NCBI RefSeq assembly: GCF_003334355.1
Contig: NZ_QOWP01000002.1
Strand: one strand, 5' to 3'
Origin: Escherichia coli
Lineage (GTDB): Bacteria > Pseudomonadota > Gammaproteobacteria > Enterobacterales > Enterobacteriaceae
DNA: 64,000 nucleotides
Below are positions 134-10,051 of this stretch, in pieces (position 1 is the first letter of the stretch; the number at the start of each line of letters is the position of its first letter). The translations under genes were made by a program, and so were the position numbers. The notes under the pieces were generated by a model that made no database searches, had not been told where the DNA came from, and was given only the letters and a program-made list of their open reading frames with translations.

Positions 134-184
134 TATCTACCTTAACTTAATGATTTTGATAAAAATCATTAGGGGATTCATCAG

Positions 185-2859
185 AACCCAGCCTGCAACG
201 TGTAGCTAAATACCATAAAAACTTCCCCCATGCGACGCTCGCCGCACTGGCAGAACTGCTGGCGTTAACAGAACCACCAGCCCGCCCTGGTTATCCAATC
301 ATCGAAGACAAAAAGCTGCCTGCACAGCAAAAAGCACGCGATGAATACTGGCGTACGCTGTTACAAACGCTGATGGCATCGCAGCCACAACTGGCAGCAG
401 AAGTGATGCCGTGGTTAAGTACTCAACCCCAGTCAGTGCTGAAGAGTTATTTATCGGCACCGCCCAAACCGGTTATTGATGGCACCGATAACAGCAATCT
501 GCCAGAAATCCTCGTTTCACCACCGTGGCGTAGTAAGAAAAAAATGACAGCTCCACGTCTTGATTTGGCACCGCTCGAATTAACTCCGCAAGTTTACTGG
601 CAACCAGGCGAACAAGAGAGGCTTGCCGCCACTGAGCCTGCCCGTTATTTCAGCACGGAATCTCTTGCGCAACGCATGGAACAAAAAAGTGGACGAGTTG
701 TATTACAGGAACTGGGTTTTGGGGATGATGTATGGCTGTTTCTGAATTATATACTCCCCGGAAAACTGGATGCTGCACGCAATTCACTCTTTGTTCAGTG
801 GCATTACTACCAGGGGCGGGTTGAAGAGATCCTGAATGGCTGGAACTCCCCGGAAGCACAATTAGCAGAACAGGCGCTCCGCAGCGGTCACATAGAAGCG
901 TTAATTAACATATGGGAAAATGACAACTACTCACATTATCGTCCGGAAAAGAGTGTCTGGAACCTGTATTTATTGGCACAGTTGCCGCGTGAGATGGCTT
1001 TGACCTTCTGGCTGCGTATCAATGAGAAAAAGCATCTGTTCGCGGGTGAGGACTATTTTCTCAGTATCCTCGGATTGGATGCGCTACCAGGTCTGCTGTT
1101 GGCTTTTTCACATCGTCCAAAAGAAACATTTCCGTTAATTTTAAATTTTGGCGCAACAGAACTGGCGCTGCCTGTTGCCCACGTCTGGCGACGTTTCGCG
1201 GCGCAGCGTGATCTGGCTCGCCAGTGGATTTTACAATGGCCGGAACATACGGCTAGTGCACTTATCCCTCTTGTCTTTACCAAACCCAGCGATAATAGCG
1301 AAGCCGCATTACTTGCCCTGCGTTTACTGTACGAACAGGGACATGGCGAATTGCTACAAACCGTGGCAAACCGCTGGCAGCGTACAGATGTATGGTCTGC
1401 CCTAGAGCAGTTGCTTAAACAGGGTCCAATGGACATTTACCCGGCACGCATTCCAAAAGCCCCTGATTTCTGGCATCCGGCAATGTGGTCCAGGCCTCGA
1501 CTTATCACTAATAATCAGCCTGTTACCGGTGACGCTCTGGAAATTATCGGCGAAATGCTGCGCTTTACCCAGGGGGGACGTTTTTATAGCGGGCTGGAAC
1601 AACTGAAAACGTTCTGCCAGCCACAAACGCTGGCAGCTTTTGCCTGGGATCTCTTCACTGCGTGGCAACAAGCTGGTGCCCCCGCAAAAGACAACTGGGC
1701 ATTTCTGGCGTTAAGTCTCTTTGGTGACGAAAGCACGGCACGGGATCTGACGACACAGATCCTCGCCTGGCCACAAGAAGGCAAATCTGCCCGTGCTGTC
1801 AGCGGCCTGAACATCCTTACCCTGATGAATAATGATATGGCGCTGATACAGCTGCATCATATATCGCAACGGGCTAAATCCCGCCCCTTACGTGATAACG
1901 CGGCGGAATTTCTTCAGGTGGTCGCAGAAAATCGCGGGCTAAGCCAGGAAGAGCTAGCGGACAGATTAGTCCCAACCCTGGGCCTTGATGATCCGCAGGC
2001 GTTGAGTTTTGATTTTGGTCCCCGGCAGTTTACCGTTCGCTTCGATGAAAACCTCAACCCGGTTATCTTTGATCAGCAAAACGTTCGCCAGAAAAGCGTT
2101 CCCCGTTTGCGCGCCGATGACGATCAACTGAAAGCGCCCGAGGCACTGGCCCGACTAAAAGGGCTAAAAAAAGATGCTACTCAGGTGAGCAAAAACCTGC
2201 TCCCGCGTCTTGAAGCTGCCCTACGTACCACCCGACGCTGGTCGCTGGCAGATTTTCATTCTCTGTTTGTTAATCATCCCTTTACCCGTCTGGTTACCCA
2301 GCGATTAATATGGGGGGGTTATCCGGCAAATGAACCGCGTCGTTTACTCAACGCCTTTCGTGTGGCCGCAGAGGGGGAGTTCTGCAATGCGCAAGATGAG
2401 CCAATTGACCTGCCTGCGGACGCTCTGATTGGCATTGCCCACCCGTTAGAAATGGCAGTAGAAATGCGCAGTGAATTTGCACAGCTTTTTGCCGATTACG
2501 AAATTATGCCGCCTTTTCGCCAGTTGTCGCGCCGCACGGTGCTGCTCACACCTGACGAGTCAACCAGTAACAGCCTGACTCGCTGGGAAGGTAAATCCGC
2601 TACCGTTGGGCAACTTATGGGAATGCGATACAAAGGCTGGGAGTCAGGCTATGAGGACACATTTGTCTATGACCTGGGCGAGTACCGGCTGGTCCTTAAG
2701 TTTTCACCCGGTTTTAACCACTACAATGTTGATAGCAAAGCGTTAATGAGCTGCCGTTCTCTTCGAGTGTACCGTGACAATAAATCCGTCACTTTTGCCG
2801 AACTTGATGTGTTTGATTTGAGTGAGGCGTTAAGCGCACCTGACGTCATTTTCCATTAA
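185..2859 (+). pseudogene. yehI: yehI-like DUF4132 protein, 3' portion; 5' end replaced by the IS10 insertion
   Basis: Reading frame is open from 163 to the stop at 2859 with protein-like translation, but has no ATG/GTG/TTG before 373. The ORF track gives 828 aa from the first internal Met. K-12 yehI is 1210 aa (recall) and lies directly upstream of yehK. Confidence 0.7.
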
Positions 2860-2919: not shown

Positions 2920-3237
2920 ATGATCGTGCAAAAAGAGCTGGTTGCTATTTACGATTATGAGGTCCCTGTACCTGAAGATCCGTTTTCCTTCAGACTTGAG
3001 ATCCATAAATGCCCTGAATTATTTACAGGTTCCGTCTATCGACTGGAGCGATTCCGGCTACATCCAACATTTCATCAACGTGATCGAGAAGATGCTGACC
3101 CGCTAATAAATGATGCGTTGATTTATATAAGAGATGAGTGTAATGATGAGCGGAAATTACGAGGTGAATCACCTGAAACTGTAATAGCAATTTTTAATCG
3201 TGAACTACAGAATATATTCAACCAAGAAATAGAATAA
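2920..3237 (+). CDS. yehK: YehK, small protein of unknown function (105 aa)
   Basis: ORF-track 105-aa ORF located between yehI and yehL, matching K-12 order and length. Confidence 0.8.
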   Translation: MIVQKELVAIYDYEVPVPEDPFSFRLEIHKCPELFTGSVYRLERFRLHPTFHQRDREDADPLINDALIYIRDECNDERKLRGESPETVIAIFNRELQNIFNQEIE

Positions 3238-3543: not shown

Positions 3544-4632
3544 ATGTCACCGCAGAATAATCATCTGCAGCGTCCGCCTGCCGCTGTGTTATACGCCGAT
3601 GAACTGGCAAAATTAAAACAAAATGATAACGCACCTTGCCCGCCCGGTTGGCAGTTAAGTTTGCCTGCGGCCCGTGCTTTTATCCTTGGCGATAGCGCGC
3701 AAAATATTAGCCGTAAAGTGGTGATTAGTCCCTCTGCTGTCGAACGTATGTTAGTCACTCTTGCCACCGGGCGCGGTTTGATGTTGGTGGGGGAACCTGG
3801 CACCGCAAAATCTCTCCTGTCTGAATTACTGGCAACCGCTATTAGCGGCGATGCCGGGTTAACCATCCAGGGCGGCGCATCTACCACTGAAGATCAAATC
3901 AAATACGGCTGGAACTACGCTCTGCTTATCAATCATGGTCCATCAACGGAAGCGCTGGTCCCTGCCCCGCTTTACCAGGGAATGCGCGACGGCAAAATCG
4001 TCCGTTTTGAAGAGATAACGCGTACACCGCTGGAAGTGCAAGACTGTCTGTTAGGTATGCTTTCTGACCGGGTTATGACGGTGCCGGAACTCACCAGTGA
4101 AGCCAGTCAGCTCTATGCGCGAGAAGGCTTTAATATTATTGCCACTGCCAATACCCGCGATCGCGGCGTCAATGAGATGAGTGCCGCGCTAAAGCGTCGC
4201 TTCGATTTTGAAACTGTCTTTCCGATTATGGATTTCGCCCAGGAGCTGGAACTGGTCGCCAGTGCTTCGGCGCGTTTGCTGGCCCATAGCGGTATTCCGC
4301 ATAAAGTGCCTGACGCGGTACTGGAGTTACTGGTCCGCACCTTCCGCGATCTGCGTGCCAACGGCGAAAAGAAAACGTCAATGGATACCCTGACGGCAAT
4401 TATGTCCACCGCTGAAGCCGTGAACGTGGCCCACGCAGTGGGCGTCCGCGCCTGGTTTTTAGCGAATCGCGCAGGTGAGCCAGCCGACCTGGTGGACTGC
4501 ATTGCCGGAACCATCGTCAAAGATAATGAAGAAGATCGCGCTCGTCTGCGCCGTTACTTCGAACAGCGTGTCGCCACACATAAAGAAGCTCACTGGCAGG
4601 CTTATTATCAAGCCCGCCACCGCCTGCCGTGA
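3544..4632 (+). CDS. yehL: YehL, MoxR-like AAA+ ATPase (362 aa)
   Basis: Walker A GEPGTAKS at 3790-3813; Walker B-like IVRFEEI; LKRRFDF motif typical of MoxR-type ATPases. Start trimmed to Met 23 of the ORF (MSPQNN) to match the K-12 length. Confidence 0.9.
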   Translation: MSPQNNHLQRPPAAVLYADELAKLKQNDNAPCPPGWQLSLPAARAFILGDSAQNISRKVVISPSAVERMLVTLATGRGLMLVGEPGTAKSLLSELLATAISGDAGLTIQGGASTTEDQIKYGWNYALLINHGPSTEALVPAPLYQGMRDGKIVRFEEITRTPLEVQDCLLGMLSDRVMTVPELTSEASQLYAREGFNIIATANTRDRGVNEMSAALKRRFDFETVFPIMDFAQELELVASASARLLAHSGIPHKVPDAVLELLVRTFRDLRANGEKKTSMDTLTAIMSTAEAVNVAHAVGVRAWFLANRAGEPADLVDCIAGTIVKDNEEDRARLRRYFEQRVATHKEAHWQAYYQARHRLP

Positions 4633-4642
4633 GGAAAGATGC

Positions 4643-6922
4643 ATGAGCGAGCCGTTAATTGTCGGCATCCGGCATCATAGTCCGGCCTGCGCCCGGCTGG
4701 TGAAATCGTTAATCGAAAGCCAGCGGCCACGATACGTGTTGATTGAAGGCCCGGCTGATTTTAATGACCGGGTAGACGAACTGTTTTTAGCCCACCAGCT
4801 TCCGGTAGCTATTTACAGTTATTGCCAGTATCAGGACGGTGCAGCCCCCGGGCGTGGTGCCTGGACGCCATTTGCTGAATTTTCGCCGGAGTGGCAGGCG
4901 CTACAAGCCGCTCGTCGTATTCAGGCACAAACTTACTTCATCGATTTGCCTTGCTGGGCGCAGAGTGAAGAAGAGGACGATTCGCCTGATACGCAAGAGG
5001 AAAGCCAGACCTTGCTGCTGCGTGCCACCCGCATGGATAACAGCGATACCCTGTGGGATCACTTGTTCGAAGATGAAAGCCAGCAAACTGCATTACCCTC
5101 TGCGCTGGCGCACTATTTTGCCCAACTGCGGGGCGACGCCTCCGGCGATGCGCTCAATCGTCAGCGCGAAGCCTTTATGGCCCGCTGGATTGGATGGGCG
5201 ATGCAGCAAAATAATGGCGACGTGTTAGTTGTCTGCGGTGGCTGGCACGCTCCGGCACTGGCAAAGATGTGGCGCGAATGCCCTCAGAAAATTAACAAGC
5301 CAGAATTGCCCTCGCTGGCAGATGCCGTTACAGGTTGTTATCTCACACCCTACAGTGAAAAGCGCCTTGATGTGCTGGCAGGATACCTTTCAGGAATGCC
5401 TGCCCCGGTATGGCAAAACTGGTGCTGGCAGTGGGGCTTGCAGAAGGCCGGTGAACAACTGCTAAAAACTATCCTTACCCGTTTGCGCCAGCACAAATTG
5501 CCCGCTTCTACCGCGGATATGGCTGCCGCTCATCTGCATGCGATGGCGCTGGCACAGTTGCGCGGTCATACACTACCGTTACGCACTGACTGGCTGGATG
5601 CCATAGCAGGCTCGCTGATTAAAGAAGCCCTGAACGCGCCGTTGCCGTGGAGCTATCGCGGCGTTATTCATCCCGATACCGATCCGATTCTGCTAACGTT
5701 GATAGACACATTAGCGGGTGACGGATTCGGTAAACTTGCCCCTTCTACGCCACAACCGCCTCTGCCAAAAGATGTCACCTGCGAACTGGAACGTACCGCA
5801 ATCTCCCTTCCGGCGGAGCTTACCTTAAATCGCTTTACCCCCGATGGGCTGGCGCAAAGTCAGGTGTTACATCGGCTGGCAATACTGGAGATCCCTGGGA
5901 TTGTACGCCAGCAGGGAAGTACACTGACACTTGCAGGCAACGGTGAAGAACGCTGGAAATTAACCCGCCCGCTTAGCCAGCATGCGGCATTGATTGAGGC
6001 CGCCTGTTTTGGTGCCACACTCCAGGAAGCCGCACGCAATAAATTAGAAGCCGATATGCTGGACGCGGGCGGAATCGGCAGTATCACCACATGTCTTAGC
6101 CAGGCGGCGTTAGCGGGTCTGGCGTCCTTCAGTCAACAATTACTGGAGCAACTCACACTATTAATCGCCCAGGAAAATCAATTTGCCGAAATGGGCCAGG
6201 CGCTGGAAGTGCTTTATGCCTTATGGCGGCTGGATGAAATTAGCGGTATGCAAGGCGCGCAGATATTACAAACGACGTTATGCGCGACTATCGATCGCAC
6301 GCTGTGGCTGTGTGAATCTAACGGCAGACCGGATGAAAAGGAGTTTCACGCTCACCTGCATAGCTGGCAAGCGCTTTGCCATATTCTGCGCGATCTACAT
6401 AGCGGCGTTAATTTACCCGGCGTTTCTCTTTCTGCGGCGGTAGCCTTACTGGAGCGACGCAGTCAGGCAATTCATGCCCCGGCGCTGGATCGCGGCGCGG
6501 CTCTTGGCGCACTAATGCGTCTGGAACATCCCAACGCCAGTGCCGAAGCGGCGCTGACGATGCTGGCGCAGTTATCCCCGGCACAATCTGGTGAGGCGCT
6601 GCACGGTTTGCTGGCGCTGGCCCGCCATCAACTGGCCTGTCAGCCGGCATTTATCGCCGGTTTCAGCAGTCATTTAAATCAACTGAGTGAAGCCGATTTT
6701 ATTAACGCCCTGCCCGATTTACGCGCGGCGATGGCCTGGCTACCACCACGAGAACGCGGGACGCTGGCGCATCAGGTGCTTGAGCATTATCAACTGGCGC
6801 AACTTCCCGTTTCGGCGCTGCAAATGCCGTTGCATTGTCCACCACAGGCCATTGCACATCATCAACAACTCGAACAGCAGGCACTGGCATCGCTGCAAAA
6901 CTGGGGAGTTTTCCATGTCTGA
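4643..6922 (+). CDS. yehM: YehM, large conserved protein of unknown function (759 aa)
   Basis: Start MSEPLIVG lies 10 nt after the yehL stop, preceded by gaggaaag. Length matches K-12 yehM. Confidence 0.9.
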   Translation: MSEPLIVGIRHHSPACARLVKSLIESQRPRYVLIEGPADFNDRVDELFLAHQLPVAIYSYCQYQDGAAPGRGAWTPFAEFSPEWQALQAARRIQAQTYFIDLPCWAQSEEEDDSPDTQEESQTLLLRATRMDNSDTLWDHLFEDESQQTALPSALAHYFAQLRGDASGDALNRQREAFMARWIGWAMQQNNGDVLVVCGGWHAPALAKMWRECPQKINKPELPSLADAVTGCYLTPYSEKRLDVLAGYLSGMPAPVWQNWCWQWGLQKAGEQLLKTILTRLRQHKLPASTADMAAAHLHAMALAQLRGHTLPLRTDWLDAIAGSLIKEALNAPLPWSYRGVIHPDTDPILLTLIDTLAGDGFGKLAPSTPQPPLPKDVTCELERTAISLPAELTLNRFTPDGLAQSQVLHRLAILEIPGIVRQQGSTLTLAGNGEERWKLTRPLSQHAALIEAACFGATLQEAARNKLEADMLDAGGIGSITTCLSQAALAGLASFSQQLLEQLTLLIAQENQFAEMGQALEVLYALWRLDEISGMQGAQILQTTLCATIDRTLWLCESNGRPDEKEFHAHLHSWQALCHILRDLHSGVNLPGVSLSAAVALLERRSQAIHAPALDRGAALGALMRLEHPNASAEAALTMLAQLSPAQSGEALHGLLALARHQLACQPAFIAGFSSHLNQLSEADFINALPDLRAAMAWLPPRERGTLAHQVLEHYQLAQLPVSALQMPLHCPPQAIAHHQQLEQQALASLQNWGVFHV

Positions 6923-8051
6923 ACTGAACGATCTTCTGACCACCCGTGAGCTACAACGCTGGCGATTAATTCTTGGCGAAGCGGCAGAAACGACGCTTTG
7001 TGGGCTGGATGACAACGCCCGGCAGATAGACCACGCGCTGGAGTGGCTGTATGGGCGCGATCCTGAACGGCTCCAGCGTGGTGAACGTTCCGGTGGATTA
7101 GGTGGCTCAAATCTCACCACCCCTGAGTGGATCAACAGTATTCACACGCTGTTTCCGCAGCAGGTGATTGAGCGGCTGGAAAGCGATGCCGTGCTGCGCT
7201 ACGGCATTGAAGATGTGGTGACGAATCTCGACGTGCTGGAACGTATGCAGCCTTCTGAAAGCCTGCTACGCGCTGTTTTGCACACCAAACATCTGATGAA
7301 CCCCGAAGTACTGGCTGCCGCCCGCCGGATAGTGTGCCAGGTTGTTGAAGAAATTATGGCTCGACTGGCAAAGGAAGTTCGCCAGGCTTTTTCTGGTGTC
7401 CGCGATCGCCGTCGCCGTTCATTTATTCCACTGGCGCGAAACTTTGATTTCAAAAGTACTCTGCGCGCCAACCTGCAACACTGGCACCCGCAACACGGCA
7501 AGTTGTATATCGAATCCCCCCGCTTTAACAGCCGCATTAAACGCCAAAGCGAACAATGGCAACTGGTCTTACTGGTTGATCAAAGCGGATCGATGGTCGA
7601 TTCGGTGATCCACTCTGCGGTAATGGCGGCCTGTTTGTGGCAGTTACCCGGCATTCGTACCCATCTGGTGGCGTTTGACACAAGCGTCGTTGATCTCACG
7701 GCAGACGTTGCCGATCCGGTAGAGTTATTAATGAAAGTACAGTTGGGCGGCGGGACCAATATCGCCAGTGCCGTGGAGTATGGTCGGCAACTTATTGAAC
7801 AACCAGCGAAAAGCGTCATTATCCTCGTGAGCGATTTTTACGAAGGGGGTTCATCATCATTACTGACGCATCAGGTGAAAAAGTGTGTCCAGAGCGGCAT
7901 CAAAGTGCTGGGACTGGCAGCGCTCGATAGCACCGCAACACCTTGCTATGACCGCGATACGGCCCAGGCGCTGGTTAATGTCGGCGCACAAATAGCCGCC
8001 ATGACGCCGGGCGAGCTGGCATCATGGCTTGCGGAGAATCTTCAGTCATGA
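6915..8051 (+). CDS. yehP: YehP, von Willebrand factor A (VWA) domain protein (378 aa)
   Basis: MIDAS motif DQSGSM (DxSxS) at 7578-7595 in the context VLLVDQSGSMVDS. Start overlaps the yehM stop by 8 nt. Confidence 0.9.
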   Translation: MSELNDLLTTRELQRWRLILGEAAETTLCGLDDNARQIDHALEWLYGRDPERLQRGERSGGLGGSNLTTPEWINSIHTLFPQQVIERLESDAVLRYGIEDVVTNLDVLERMQPSESLLRAVLHTKHLMNPEVLAAARRIVCQVVEEIMARLAKEVRQAFSGVRDRRRRSFIPLARNFDFKSTLRANLQHWHPQHGKLYIESPRFNSRIKRQSEQWQLVLLVDQSGSMVDSVIHSAVMAACLWQLPGIRTHLVAFDTSVVDLTADVADPVELLMKVQLGGGTNIASAVEYGRQLIEQPAKSVIILVSDFYEGGSSSLLTHQVKKCVQSGIKVLGLAALDSTATPCYDRDTAQALVNVGAQIAAMTPGELASWLAENLQS

Positions 8052-10051
8052 ATTCACTACGTCCGGAATTATTAGAACTGACACCGCAGGCCCTGACGGC
8101 GTTAAGCAATGCCGGTTTTGTTAAGCGCAGTCTTAAGGAACTGGAAAATGGCAACGTCCCGGAGATCAGCCATGAGAACGACGCTTTAATCGCCACCTTC
8201 AGTGACGGTGTCCGTACCCAGCTGGCGAACGGCCAGGCACTGAAAGAGGCTCAGTGCAGTTGCGGGGCCAACGGTATGTGCCGTCATCGCGTGATGCTGG
8301 TGTTAAGTTATCAACGACTTTGTGCCACCACTCAGTCTACGGAAAAAGAAGAAGAGTGGGATCCGGCAATCTGGCTGGAAGAACTGGCTACCCTTCCCGA
8401 TGCTACCCGCAAACGCGCACAGGCGCTGGTCGCTAAAGGCATCACCATTGAGTTGTTCTGTGCGCCGGGTGAAATTCCCTCTGCCCGCTTACCGATGAGC
8501 GATGTGCGTTTTTATTCCCGCAGCAGTATTCGTTTCGCCCGTTGTGATTGTATTGAAGGCACACTTTGCGAACATGTCGTACTGGCGGTACAGGCCTTCG
8601 TCGAGGCCAAAGCGCAGCAAGCAGAATTTAACCATTTAATCTGGCAGATGCGCAGCGAACACGTCACATCATCTGACGATCCGTTTGCCAGCGAAGAAGG
8701 CAACGCGTGTCGTCAATATGTTCAGCAATTAAGCCAGACATTATGGCTTGGCGGCATCAGCCAGCCGCTCATCCATTACGAGGCAGCATTCAACCGCGCA
8801 TTGCAGGCGGCAGAGACCTGCAACTGGCGCTGGGTGAGTGAATCGCTACGGCAACTGCGCGCCAGCGTTGATGCCTTCCACGCCCGCGCCAGCCACTATA
8901 ATGCCGGAGAATGCTTACATCAGCTTGCGGCATTAAACAGTCGATTAAATTGCGCACAAGAGATGGCCCGGCGCGACAGTATTGGTGAAGTTCCTCCTGT
9001 GCCGTGGCGCACGGTCGTTGGCTCTGGCATTGCCGGAGAAGCAAAGCTTGATCATCTGCGGCTGGTGTCTTTAGGTATGCGTTGCTGGCAGGATATTGAG
9101 CATTATGGTTTACGCATCTGGTTTACCGATCCCGACACCGGCAGTATTTTGCACCTTTCGCGCAGTTGGCCGCGAAGTGAACAGGAAAACTCACCGGCAG
9201 CTACGCGTCGGCTGTTTAGTTTTCAGGCTGGCGCACTGGCGGGCGGGCAAATTGTTTCACAAGCAGCAAAACGCAGTGCCGATGGCGAGCTGCTGTTAGC
9301 TACCCGCAACCGCTTAAGCAGCGTTGTGCCGCTGTCGCCTGATGCCTGGCAAATGTTGAGCGCGCCGTTACGCCAGCCGGGCATTGTGGCTTTGCGGGAA
9401 TATTTACGCCAGCGTCCCCCCGCCTGCATACGGCCTCTTAATCAGGTCGATAACTTATTTATTCTGCCGGTCGCTGAGTGTATTTCGCTCGGTTGGGATA
9501 GCAGCCGCCAGACGCTGGATGCGCAGGTAATCAGCGGCGAAGGTGAAGATAATCTGCTGACGTTATCACTGCCAGCCTCAGCCAGCGCGCCTTATGCCGT
9601 TGAACGCATGGCGGCGCTTTTGCAACAAACAGACGACCCCGTGTATCTGGTTTCTGGCTTTGTCAGTTTTGTTGATGGGCAATTGACACTGGAACCACAG
9701 GTAATGATGACAAAGACTCGTGCCTGGGCGCTGGACGCAGAAACTGCGCCTGTGGTGGTATCACTACCTTCTGCCAGCGTTCTGCCTGTGCCGTCTACTG
9801 CTCATCAGTTGCTGATGCGCTGCCAGGCGTTACTTATTCAACTGCTCCATAACGGCTGGCGCTATCAGGAACAGAGCGCTATTAGTCAGGCAGAGTTGCT
9901 GGCGAATGACCTCACCGCGGTGGGTTTTTATCGGCTGGCACATGTGTTGGCACAATTTCGTAATACAGAAAGCGAGGCACGGGTAGAAGCAATGAATAAC
10001 GGTGTTTTGCTTTGCGAACAATTATTCCCCATGCTTCAGCAACAAGGATGA
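8048..10051 (+). CDS. yehQ: YehQ, SWIM zinc-finger protein
   Basis: Two CxC-x(n)-CxH motifs: CSCGANGMCRH (8255-8287) and CDCIEGTLCEH (8543-8575). ATG at 8048 overlaps the yehP stop (ATGA). Start is uncertain; the ORF track begins at 8024. Confidence 0.8.
   Translation: MNSLRPELLELTPQALTALSNAGFVKRSLKELENGNVPEISHENDALIATFSDGVRTQLANGQALKEAQCSCGANGMCRHRVMLVLSYQRLCATTQSTEKEEEWDPAIWLEELATLPDATRKRAQALVAKGITIELFCAPGEIPSARLPMSDVRFYSRSSIRFARCDCIEGTLCEHVVLAVQAFVEAKAQQAEFNHLIWQMRSEHVTSSDDPFASEEGNACRQYVQQLSQTLWLGGISQPLIHYEAAFNRALQAAETCNWRWVSESLRQLRASVDAFHARASHYNAGECLHQLAALNSRLNCAQEMARRDSIGEVPPVPWRTVVGSGIAGEAKLDHLRLVSLGMRCWQDIEHYGLRIWFTDPDTGSILHLSRSWPRSEQENSPAATRRLFSFQAGALAGGQIVSQAAKRSADGELLLATRNRLSSVVPLSPDAWQMLSAPLRQPGIVALREYLRQRPPACIRPLNQVDNLFILPVAECISLGWDSSRQTLDAQVISGEGEDNLLTLSLPASASAPYAVERMAALLQQTDDPVYLVSGFVSFVDGQLTLEPQVMMTKTRAWALDAETAPVVVSLPSASVLPVPSTAHQLLMRCQALLIQLLHNGWRYQEQSAISQAELLANDLTAVGFYRLAHVLAQFRNTESEARVEAMNNGVLLCEQLFPMLQQQG

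Follow-up and report, generated by a model that had tools for sequence, protein, structure and literature searches.

What task would be performed by a protein with two putative zinc-binding modules whose gene is clustered with those of a MoxR-type ATPase and a VWA protein? This question is raised by yehQ, located in a stretch of 64,000 nucleotides from Escherichia coli (contig NZ_QOWP01000002.1, assembly GCF_003334355.1), the whole of which is called here the window and which is the chromosomal yeh region of this species. The original prediction proposed that YehQ carries two SWIM-type CxC-x(n)-CxH motifs, and that a duplicated SWIM module beside an ATPase and a VWA protein suggests a nucleic-acid- or protein-recognition subunit. 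Our sequence analysis confirmed that YehQ carries two SWIM-type modules, each of which is predicted to bind one zinc ion through a Cys3His site. It should be noticed that these two SWIM domains are already known and not new. Indeed, RefSeq names the K-12 MG1655 product ‘SWIM zinc finger domains-containing protein YehQ’ (note the plural ‘domains’), the UniProt-derived AFDB entries name the family ‘SWIM-type domain-containing protein’, PGAP likewise uses SWIM and the megablast matches to yehQ are annotated ‘SWIM zinc finger family protein’, so the SWIM reading is a rediscovery of existing annotation. Since both motifs are already annotated, finding them changes nothing by itself, and the interest lies in the cassette to which yehQ belongs. 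What is new here consists of refinements and not of a discovery: the homology of the whole 85-residue module, two OB-like barrels and the extent of the cassette, together with lineage-specific loss of the second site and amplification of the first module within the YehQ family.

The translation of positions 8255-8575 (+ strand) gave a 107-residue peptide that begins with CSCGANGMCRH and ends with CDCIEGTLCEH. Both motifs were thus found where they had been predicted, in frame within the open reading frame (ORF) ending at 10051, and their separation was computed as 96 residues for the ~95 proposed. A chance origin is excluded because composition-preserving shuffles of YehQ rarely give two motifs: among 200,000 shuffles, 216 contained at least one C.C.{4,8}C.H match and 3 contained at least two. 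Translating the window in all six frames returned three such matches, two of them being the YehQ motifs. The third (CPCFTIWRAAICEH), at 25872-25913 (+), belongs to an ORF of 62 aa that is antisense to one of 257 aa, and probably arose by chance in a non-coding frame. As regards family membership, the Pfam SWIM profile (PF04434) matched residues 56-88 with an E-value of 1.3e-3 (18.6 bits, model positions 2-37 of 38) and residues 160-183 with an E-value of 0.21 (11.6 bits); the profile search called for by the original prediction therefore stood marginally for motif 1 but failed for motif 2 taken alone. When 88 family members were scanned individually, SWIM was detected in 62 at E<=0.1 and in 5 at E<=0.001, and in the precomputed Pfam results it varies among homologues from present through ‘faint’ to absent, so that the Pfam evidence is weak and recurrent. 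No family match was found in NCBIfam, and PDB sequence searches with the YehQ protein and the family profile returned no relative (only dipeptidase and designed-helix noise).

The conservation of the ligands was more informative. An exhaustive HMMER scan of 1.84 billion cluster representatives returned 872 clusters (50% identity) at E<=1e-3, including 261 at E<=1e-30, with matches that mostly span the full length; YehQ aligned full-length with homologues of 615-700 aa. The original prediction had staked the SWIM reading on cysteines conserved among orthologues, and this is what we observed in an alignment of 122 full-length representatives (27-48% identity to YehQ). Indeed, C70, C72, C78 and H80 were all kept in 121 of them, the lone exception being gapped in those columns, while C166 was kept in 113 and C168, C174 and H176 in 110 each, motif 2 being complete in 110. 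The remaining cysteines of YehQ (C92, C138, C221 and C258) were unconserved in the same alignment, and among 16 enterobacterial orthologues neither motif varied. From CxC to CxH, the spacer counted five residues in 107/121 representatives for motif 1 and in 108/110 for motif 2. In 12 of the 122 representatives, at least two of which are actinobacterial (Mycobacteroides chelonae and a Streptomyces), three or more of the motif-2 ligands were lost jointly with retention of the downstream helix (consensus LAVWAFR), and joint loss is the pattern predicted by a metal site. The alignment thus indicates that module 2 is more dispensable than module 1. In addition, module 1 is probably the main functional surface of the protein, since it holds the densest set of invariant or near-invariant residues (R5, D7, N21, G23, K26, R27, C70, C72, C78, R79, H80, R81 and Y88). 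As a separate observation, the homologue encoded in the complete genome of Actinokineospora sp. G85 (protein P0146, L011 10001-12574) contains three tandem, non-identical copies of module 1, with CSCGAPGVCRH at residues 69, 193 and 292, and a CxC...CxH match resembling that of module 2 was not found in it.

The duplication proposed for the SWIM module turned out to be stronger than claimed. HHalign comparison of the alignment slices covering residues 1-98 and 99-200 gave a probability of 95.6% and an E-value of 1.2e-8 over 81 columns (residues 11-94 against 109-190), when four controls with other YehQ regions gave probabilities below 1% and E-values of 0.07-0.25. This comparison indicates that modules 1 and 2 are homologous well beyond their four ligands, over ~85 residues each. 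An AlphaFold2 (AF2) model built from an 88-sequence alignment reached a predicted local distance difference test score (pLDDT) of 94.3 and a predicted template-modelling score (pTM) of 0.92, whereas a single-sequence model was unusable (pLDDT 40). In the alignment-based model, module 1 comprises helices at residues 13-19, 22-33 and 79-93 and strands at 39-43, 46-50, 56-60 and 69-70, and module 2 comprises helices at 111-115, 118-129 and 175-190 and strands at 133-137, 145-147, 152-155 and 164-166; in both, the CxH pair lies at the N-terminus of the helix that follows the beta strands. The first description of the CxCxnCxH SWIM domain is reportedly that of Makarova, Aravind and Koonin (2002). 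Both modules share with the Pfam family the Cys-x-Cys...Cys-x-His ligands, the strands before CxC and the helix starting at CxH. They differ from it by a spacer of five residues in ~90% of the YehQ family, for a value described as ‘usually n = 6-16’ (PMC5727457), by a unit of ~85 residues that adds two N-terminal helices and a strand sheet and occurs twice, and by the marginal profile scores.

Beyond the SWIM modules, the model suggests a four-helix bundle, two beta-barrels and a C-terminal helical domain (Table 1). Residues 331-428 and 470-561 may be OB-like, a weak assignment that rests on the model; in the second barrel, strands at 470-484, 489-495 and 503-509 are followed by a helix at 517-526 and by strands at 534-542 and 545-554, a succession that agrees with an OB fold. 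Searching the PDB by Foldseek with the YehQ model returned no match at E<=0.001, and the top matches were tandem-OB DNA binders with E-values from 2e-3 to 0.2 and probabilities up to 0.98. These were led by baculovirus LEF-3 (7yny, E 2.1e-3) and the DBD-A/B of RPA70 (1jmc, E 3.7e-3, probability 0.98), with weak matches to the MNDA HIN domain on double-stranded DNA, CTC1 and POT1 (3kjo); sequence identity in the OB matches was 7-10% and the TM score 0.26-0.44. YehQ would thus resemble the tandem OB binders of single-stranded DNA (RPA70, POT1 and LEF-3) in having two consecutive barrels with a b1-b3/helix/b4-b5 order, but its similarity to them is weak, with E-values of 2e-3 or worse. The two barrels cannot be called a sequence duplication, because HHalign showed no sequence similarity between them. 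Note that HHalign also aligned the central helical bundle (aa 205-315; 8660-8992) with the C-terminal domain (aa 575-667; 9770-10048) at a probability of 80% and an E-value of 1.4e-5, which may reflect either repeat homology or a shared helical composition.

The neighbourhood of yehQ was also as proposed. The ATPase and VWA neighbours were confirmed by clear Pfam matches of YehL to AAA_5 and of YehP to VWA_CoxE (Table 1), the YehP translation containing VDQSGS, which fits the DxSxS motif of the metal ion-dependent adhesion site (MIDAS). YehL founds a MoxR subfamily of its own, among the seven that have been listed (PMC3893208). Almost every E. coli has the YehL-YehM-YehP-YehQ set, which is also found in distant members of the Proteobacteria and Actinobacteria, and the literature searched contained no functional study of yehQ, of yehL, yehM and yehP or of DUF5682. 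Outside E. coli, the order AAA_5 (YehL), DUF5682 (YehM), VWA_CoxE (YehP) and, last, YehQ was seen in Mycobacteroides chelonae (L005/L006), in Actinokineospora (L011) and in two metagenomic contexts (L002 and L009/L010), with variants in two others (L007/L008 and L012). The gene order in Actinokineospora equals that of E. coli from yehH through yehQ, minus yehK. WGR and/or DUF4132 genes accompany the cassette in 5/6 contexts outside E. coli; a seventh contig (L004) is too short to hold the upstream genes. In AFDB, further members of the family were matched in Alpha-, Beta-, Gamma- and Delta-proteobacteria, in Myxococcota and in many Actinobacteria, this taxonomy being read from cluster names and AFDB descriptions. 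Judged from gene order and homology, the cassette is conserved across Proteobacteria and Actinobacteria. As a further observation, the L007/L008 cluster (L007, 1-10001) starts with a gene in which WGR is fused to a DNA ligase having adenylation, OB and BRCT domains; the DUF4132 protein of this cluster carries ankyrin repeats, and its DUF5682 and VWA_CoxE domains are fused in a protein of 1107 aa.

In K-12, outside the window, the WGR gene yehF is preceded at a distance of 27 nt by a LexA-like box (AACTGGATAAAATTACAGGG, L013 1448-1467), which fits the report of molR in the LexA regulon; WGR and DUF4132 genes of Deinococcus are also reported as strongly induced on DdrO depletion (10.1101/2021.07.07.451423).

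Altogether, we tentatively favour, at somewhat less than an even chance, a role of YehQ as the adaptor, perhaps a DNA-binding one, by which a MoxR-VWA remodeller would recognise its target. Remodelling with the help of VWA adaptors is known for MoxR-VWA pairs (PMC7159879; PMC3893208), the VWA partner coupling the ATPase ring to the target complex (PMC7159879). In such a machine, the SWIM modules and OB-like barrels of YehQ would hold the target, most likely single-stranded DNA, damaged DNA or a DNA-bound protein, YehP would bridge YehQ and YehM to the YehL ring, and the ring would drive, at the cost of ATP, the remodelling or release of the complex so formed. The nucleic-acid- or protein-recognition subunit of the original prediction is consistent with the conserved synteny and with the modelled barrels. 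A nucleic-acid ligand is suggested by these barrels, by basic residues flanking the SWIM sites, by the WGR neighbours and the ligase-WGR fusion, and by the LexA and DdrO reports together with the LexA-like box before yehF. The DUF5682-VWA (L007/L008) and VWA-YehQ (L012) fusions hint at a physical complex of the putative four partners.

Several points weigh against this adaptor role. The SWIM profile scores are marginal, motif 2 on its own staying below significance, and characterised SWIM domains can serve protein-protein contacts alone, DNA binding being absent from the Shu1-Shu2 subcomplex (PMC5727457). As the adjacent genes look fragmented, the L012 fusion may have arisen from faulty assembly, and the L002 context has no nearby WGR or DUF4132 gene. 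In addition, yehL and yehM are repressed by H-NS from their own intergenic region (PMC3686432) and no LexA-like box was found before yehL within the window, so the cassette may be regulated apart from the upstream WGR/DUF4132 genes. A broader proposal, which we regard as unlikely although worth stating, would make the whole yehF-yehQ cluster an uncharacterised and widely conserved machine, either linked to DNA damage or serving in conflicts by sensing DNA, in which YehQ would bind single-stranded DNA or a lesion intermediate and the YehL/YehP motor, with YehM, would remodel nucleoprotein together with the WGR/DUF4132 proteins. If true, it would provide a new client class for MoxR ATPases. The domain map, with two homologous, predicted zinc modules and two OB-like barrels linked to damage-inducible WGR/DUF4132 genes of E. 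coli and Deinococcus, offers a concrete and testable hypothesis.

The main competitor of the adaptor role, somewhat unlikely in our view but still credible, holds that the SWIM modules serve protein docking only (to YehP, YehM or the DUF4132/WGR proteins) and that YehQ is a scaffold without nucleic-acid ligand. The closest precedent is Shu2/SWS1, a zinc-bound SWIM protein inside a multi-protein DNA-repair assembly, whose SWIM domain mediates subunit contacts by forming the Shu1-Shu2 interface (PMC5727457) and thus holds Shu1. Shu2 differs from YehQ in having one SWIM with a 59-residue insertion and Rad51 paralogue partners, where YehQ has two compact SWIMs and a MoxR ATPase/VWA setting, and PDB searches by sequence and by Foldseek returned no sequence or fold match of YehQ to Shu2. 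A scaffold would also suit the constant adjacency of YehQ to the same three partners, the possible VWA-YehQ fusion and the fact that module 1, the most conserved part of the protein, would make a fixed partner interface. However, the near-invariant basic residues K26, R27, R79 and R81 and the OB-like barrels would suit a polyanionic ligand as well, DNA is suggested by the WGR and ligase neighbours, and both roles are not mutually exclusive. At the other end of the scale, the idea that the motifs are chance or non-SWIM cysteine clusters devoid of any metal role could draw on the weak Pfam E-values, the missing NCBIfam match and a spacer one residue below the usual range (PMC5727457), but it is effectively refuted, with hardly any likelihood left, by the conservation data: the ligands are near-invariant across distant phyla when other cysteines vary, SWIM matches recur in 62/88 members, the secondary-structure context is the expected one and shuffling yields two motifs in just 3 of the 200,000 cases.

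Two further explanations start from the relatives of the ATPase. RavA-ViaA, NorQ-NorD, CoxD-CoxE and CbbQ-CbbO resemble the Yeh cassette in that an AAA_5 gene adjoins that of a CoxE-type VWA protein bearing a MIDAS-type motif, and the logic of a VWA adaptor coupling the ring to its target is expected to be shared; the YehL subfamily differs in always adding a large DUF5682 protein and the double-SWIM YehQ, with no metalloenzyme client encoded nearby. Published work presents CoxD-CoxE, NorQD and the chelatases as metal-insertion systems (PMC7159879; PMC9976466, PMC13036017), and YehP belongs to the CoxE-type VWA family (E 3.2e-72) with a weak NCBIfam match to a putative cobaltochelatase. By analogy, YehQ would be a client whose maturation, or that of a partner, depends on YehL-YehP, for example by metal insertion, with loading or remodelling of the Cys3His sites. 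We consider this very improbable, as no dedicated ATPase is normally needed to load structural Cys3His zinc sites, the ~10% of family representatives without site 2 still keep the cassette, and no conserved metalloenzyme gene was seen in the neighbourhoods examined. Scarcely better placed, and improbable too, is an anti-phage or conflict system of the vWA-MoxR ternary type, in which YehQ would sense invading nucleic acid. The vWA-MoxR pairs with a variable third component have been described as conflict systems (VMAP, iSTAND; PMC7159879), and the Yeh cassette shares with them a CoxD-CoxE-type MoxR-vWA core and extra dedicated components. The silencing of yehL and yehM by H-NS, like that of horizontally acquired genes, the unusual diversity and frequent decay of yehQ within E. 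coli and one short contig where a YehQ homologue stands beside a SIR2_2/DUF4062 gene would all agree with it. On the other hand, YehI, YehK, YehL, YehM, YehP and YehQ match no model of PADLOC-DB v2 at E<=0.01, no conserved effector domain (nuclease, protease, pore or NADase) was seen in the cassette contexts examined, and the gene holds a fixed chromosomal position in 5362 of the 5426 E. coli genomes, being absent from phages and rare on plasmids. Note that the paper on conflict systems (PMC7159879) mentions neither SWIM nor WGR nor YehL.

Table 1. Features of yehQ and its neighbours in the window, and cassette contexts in other genomes (AF2, AlphaFold2 model; aa, amino acids)
Feature	Source	Position	Strand	Basis or remark
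yehI 3′ part (DUF4132)	window	177..2859	+	5′ side truncated by insertion sequence; matches PSS-12 YehI only from KPSLQRVAKYHKNF onward
yehK	window	2920-3237		product unlisted; annotation
yehL, MoxR-type AAA+ ATPase (AAA_5)	window	3544..4632	+	Pfam PF07728, E 4.6e-34
yehM, DUF5682	window	4643..6922	+	Pfam PF18934, E 4.7e-98
yehP, VWA_CoxE	window	6915..8051	+	Pfam PF05762, E 3.2e-72
yehQ coding sequence	window	8048..10051	+	667 aa + stop; intact allele; ORF, ATGA overlap with yehP
SWIM module 1 (aa 11-94)	window	8078..8329	+	two helices, three strands, CxC knuckle, helix from CxH
Motif 1 CSCGANGMCRH (C70, C72, C78, H80; aa 70-80)	window	8255..8287	+	in-frame translation
SWIM module 2 (aa 109-190)	window	8372..8617	+	secondary-structure order as in module 1
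Motif 2 CDCIEGTLCEH (C166, C168, C174, H176; aa 166-176)	window	8543..8575	+	in-frame translation
Four-helix bundle (aa 216-311)	window	8693..8980	+	AF2
Beta-barrel 1, OB-like, tentative (aa 331-428)	window	9038..9331	+	AF2 strand-strand-strand-helix-strand
Beta-barrel 2, OB-like, tentative (aa 470-561)	window	9455..9730	+	AF2 b1-b3/alpha/b4-b5 order
C-terminal helical domain (aa 584-666)	window	9797..10045	+	AF2 helices; last 53 residues missing in K-12
Cassette, YehQ identity 36%	L002, metagenome			AAA_5, DUF5682, VWA_CoxE, YehQ; no WGR/DUF4132 nearby
Cassette, YehQ identity 28%	L005/L006, Mycobacteroides chelonae			DUF4132 x2, then cassette
Cassette, YehQ identity 33%	L009/L010, metagenome			divergent WGR-DUF4132 gene, then cassette
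Cassette, YehQ identity 35%	L011, Actinokineospora			WGR-DUF4132, DUF4132, AAA_5, DUF5682, VWA, YehQ
Cassette variant, YehQ identity 27%	L007/L008, metagenome			DNA-ligase-WGR fusion, AAA_5, ankyrin-DUF4132, DUF5682-VWA fusion, YehQ
Cassette variant, YehQ identity 34%	L012, metagenome			WGR, DUF5682 fragments, VWA-YehQ fusion

Concerning the locus itself, the likely start of yehQ is the ATG at 8048, whose ATGA is shared with the yehP stop, and the gene is followed downstream by yehR, yehS, btsRS and mlrA according to the annotation. By megablast, yehQ is present in 5362/5426 complete E. coli genomes, nearly all copies being chromosomal. A phage origin was rejected, as the sole full-length phage match is an apparent chromosomal flank (yehP, yehQ and yehV; 919-2919) in the Stx1 prophage record AP000400.1 (VT1-Sakai), and a plasmid origin was likewise rejected, the plasmid matches being megaplasmids or records of 4.8-4.9 Mb, the size of an E. 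coli chromosome, filed as plasmids.

For future functional work, it should be noticed that both K-12 and the strain of the window carry damaged copies of the cluster. In K-12 MG1655, yehH is a pseudogene and yehQ (L013 14101-15945) ends early at codon 615, where TAA replaces a codon for E and the last 53 residues are lost, and K-12 is a poor background for functional tests of the YehQ cluster. In the strain of the window, the DUF4132 gene yehI is truncated because an insertion sequence was inserted near position 177; positions 1-176 are the end of an IS4-family element annotated ISVsa5 (IS10-like), 100% identical copies of which occur in many E. coli chromosomes and plasmids. The allele closest to the yehQ of the window, at 99.9% identity, is that of strain PSS-12, which is annotated as a pseudogene because of an internal stop.

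More generally, the diversity of yehQ is unusual for a gene of the E. coli chromosome, with identities of 90-95% in 1837/5364 records and of at least 99% in 250. Some alleles of E. coli and Shigella sonnei show in-frame deletions of 40-43 aa in the helical bundle, bounded by short repeats (HY.AGE ... GIAGE). At ~9752-9760 of the window (aa ~569-573), the allele reads APVVVSLPS for APVAPLPS in other E. coli alleles, with a 3-nt insertion relative to K-12, as if the reading frame had shifted locally and been restored a few codons later.

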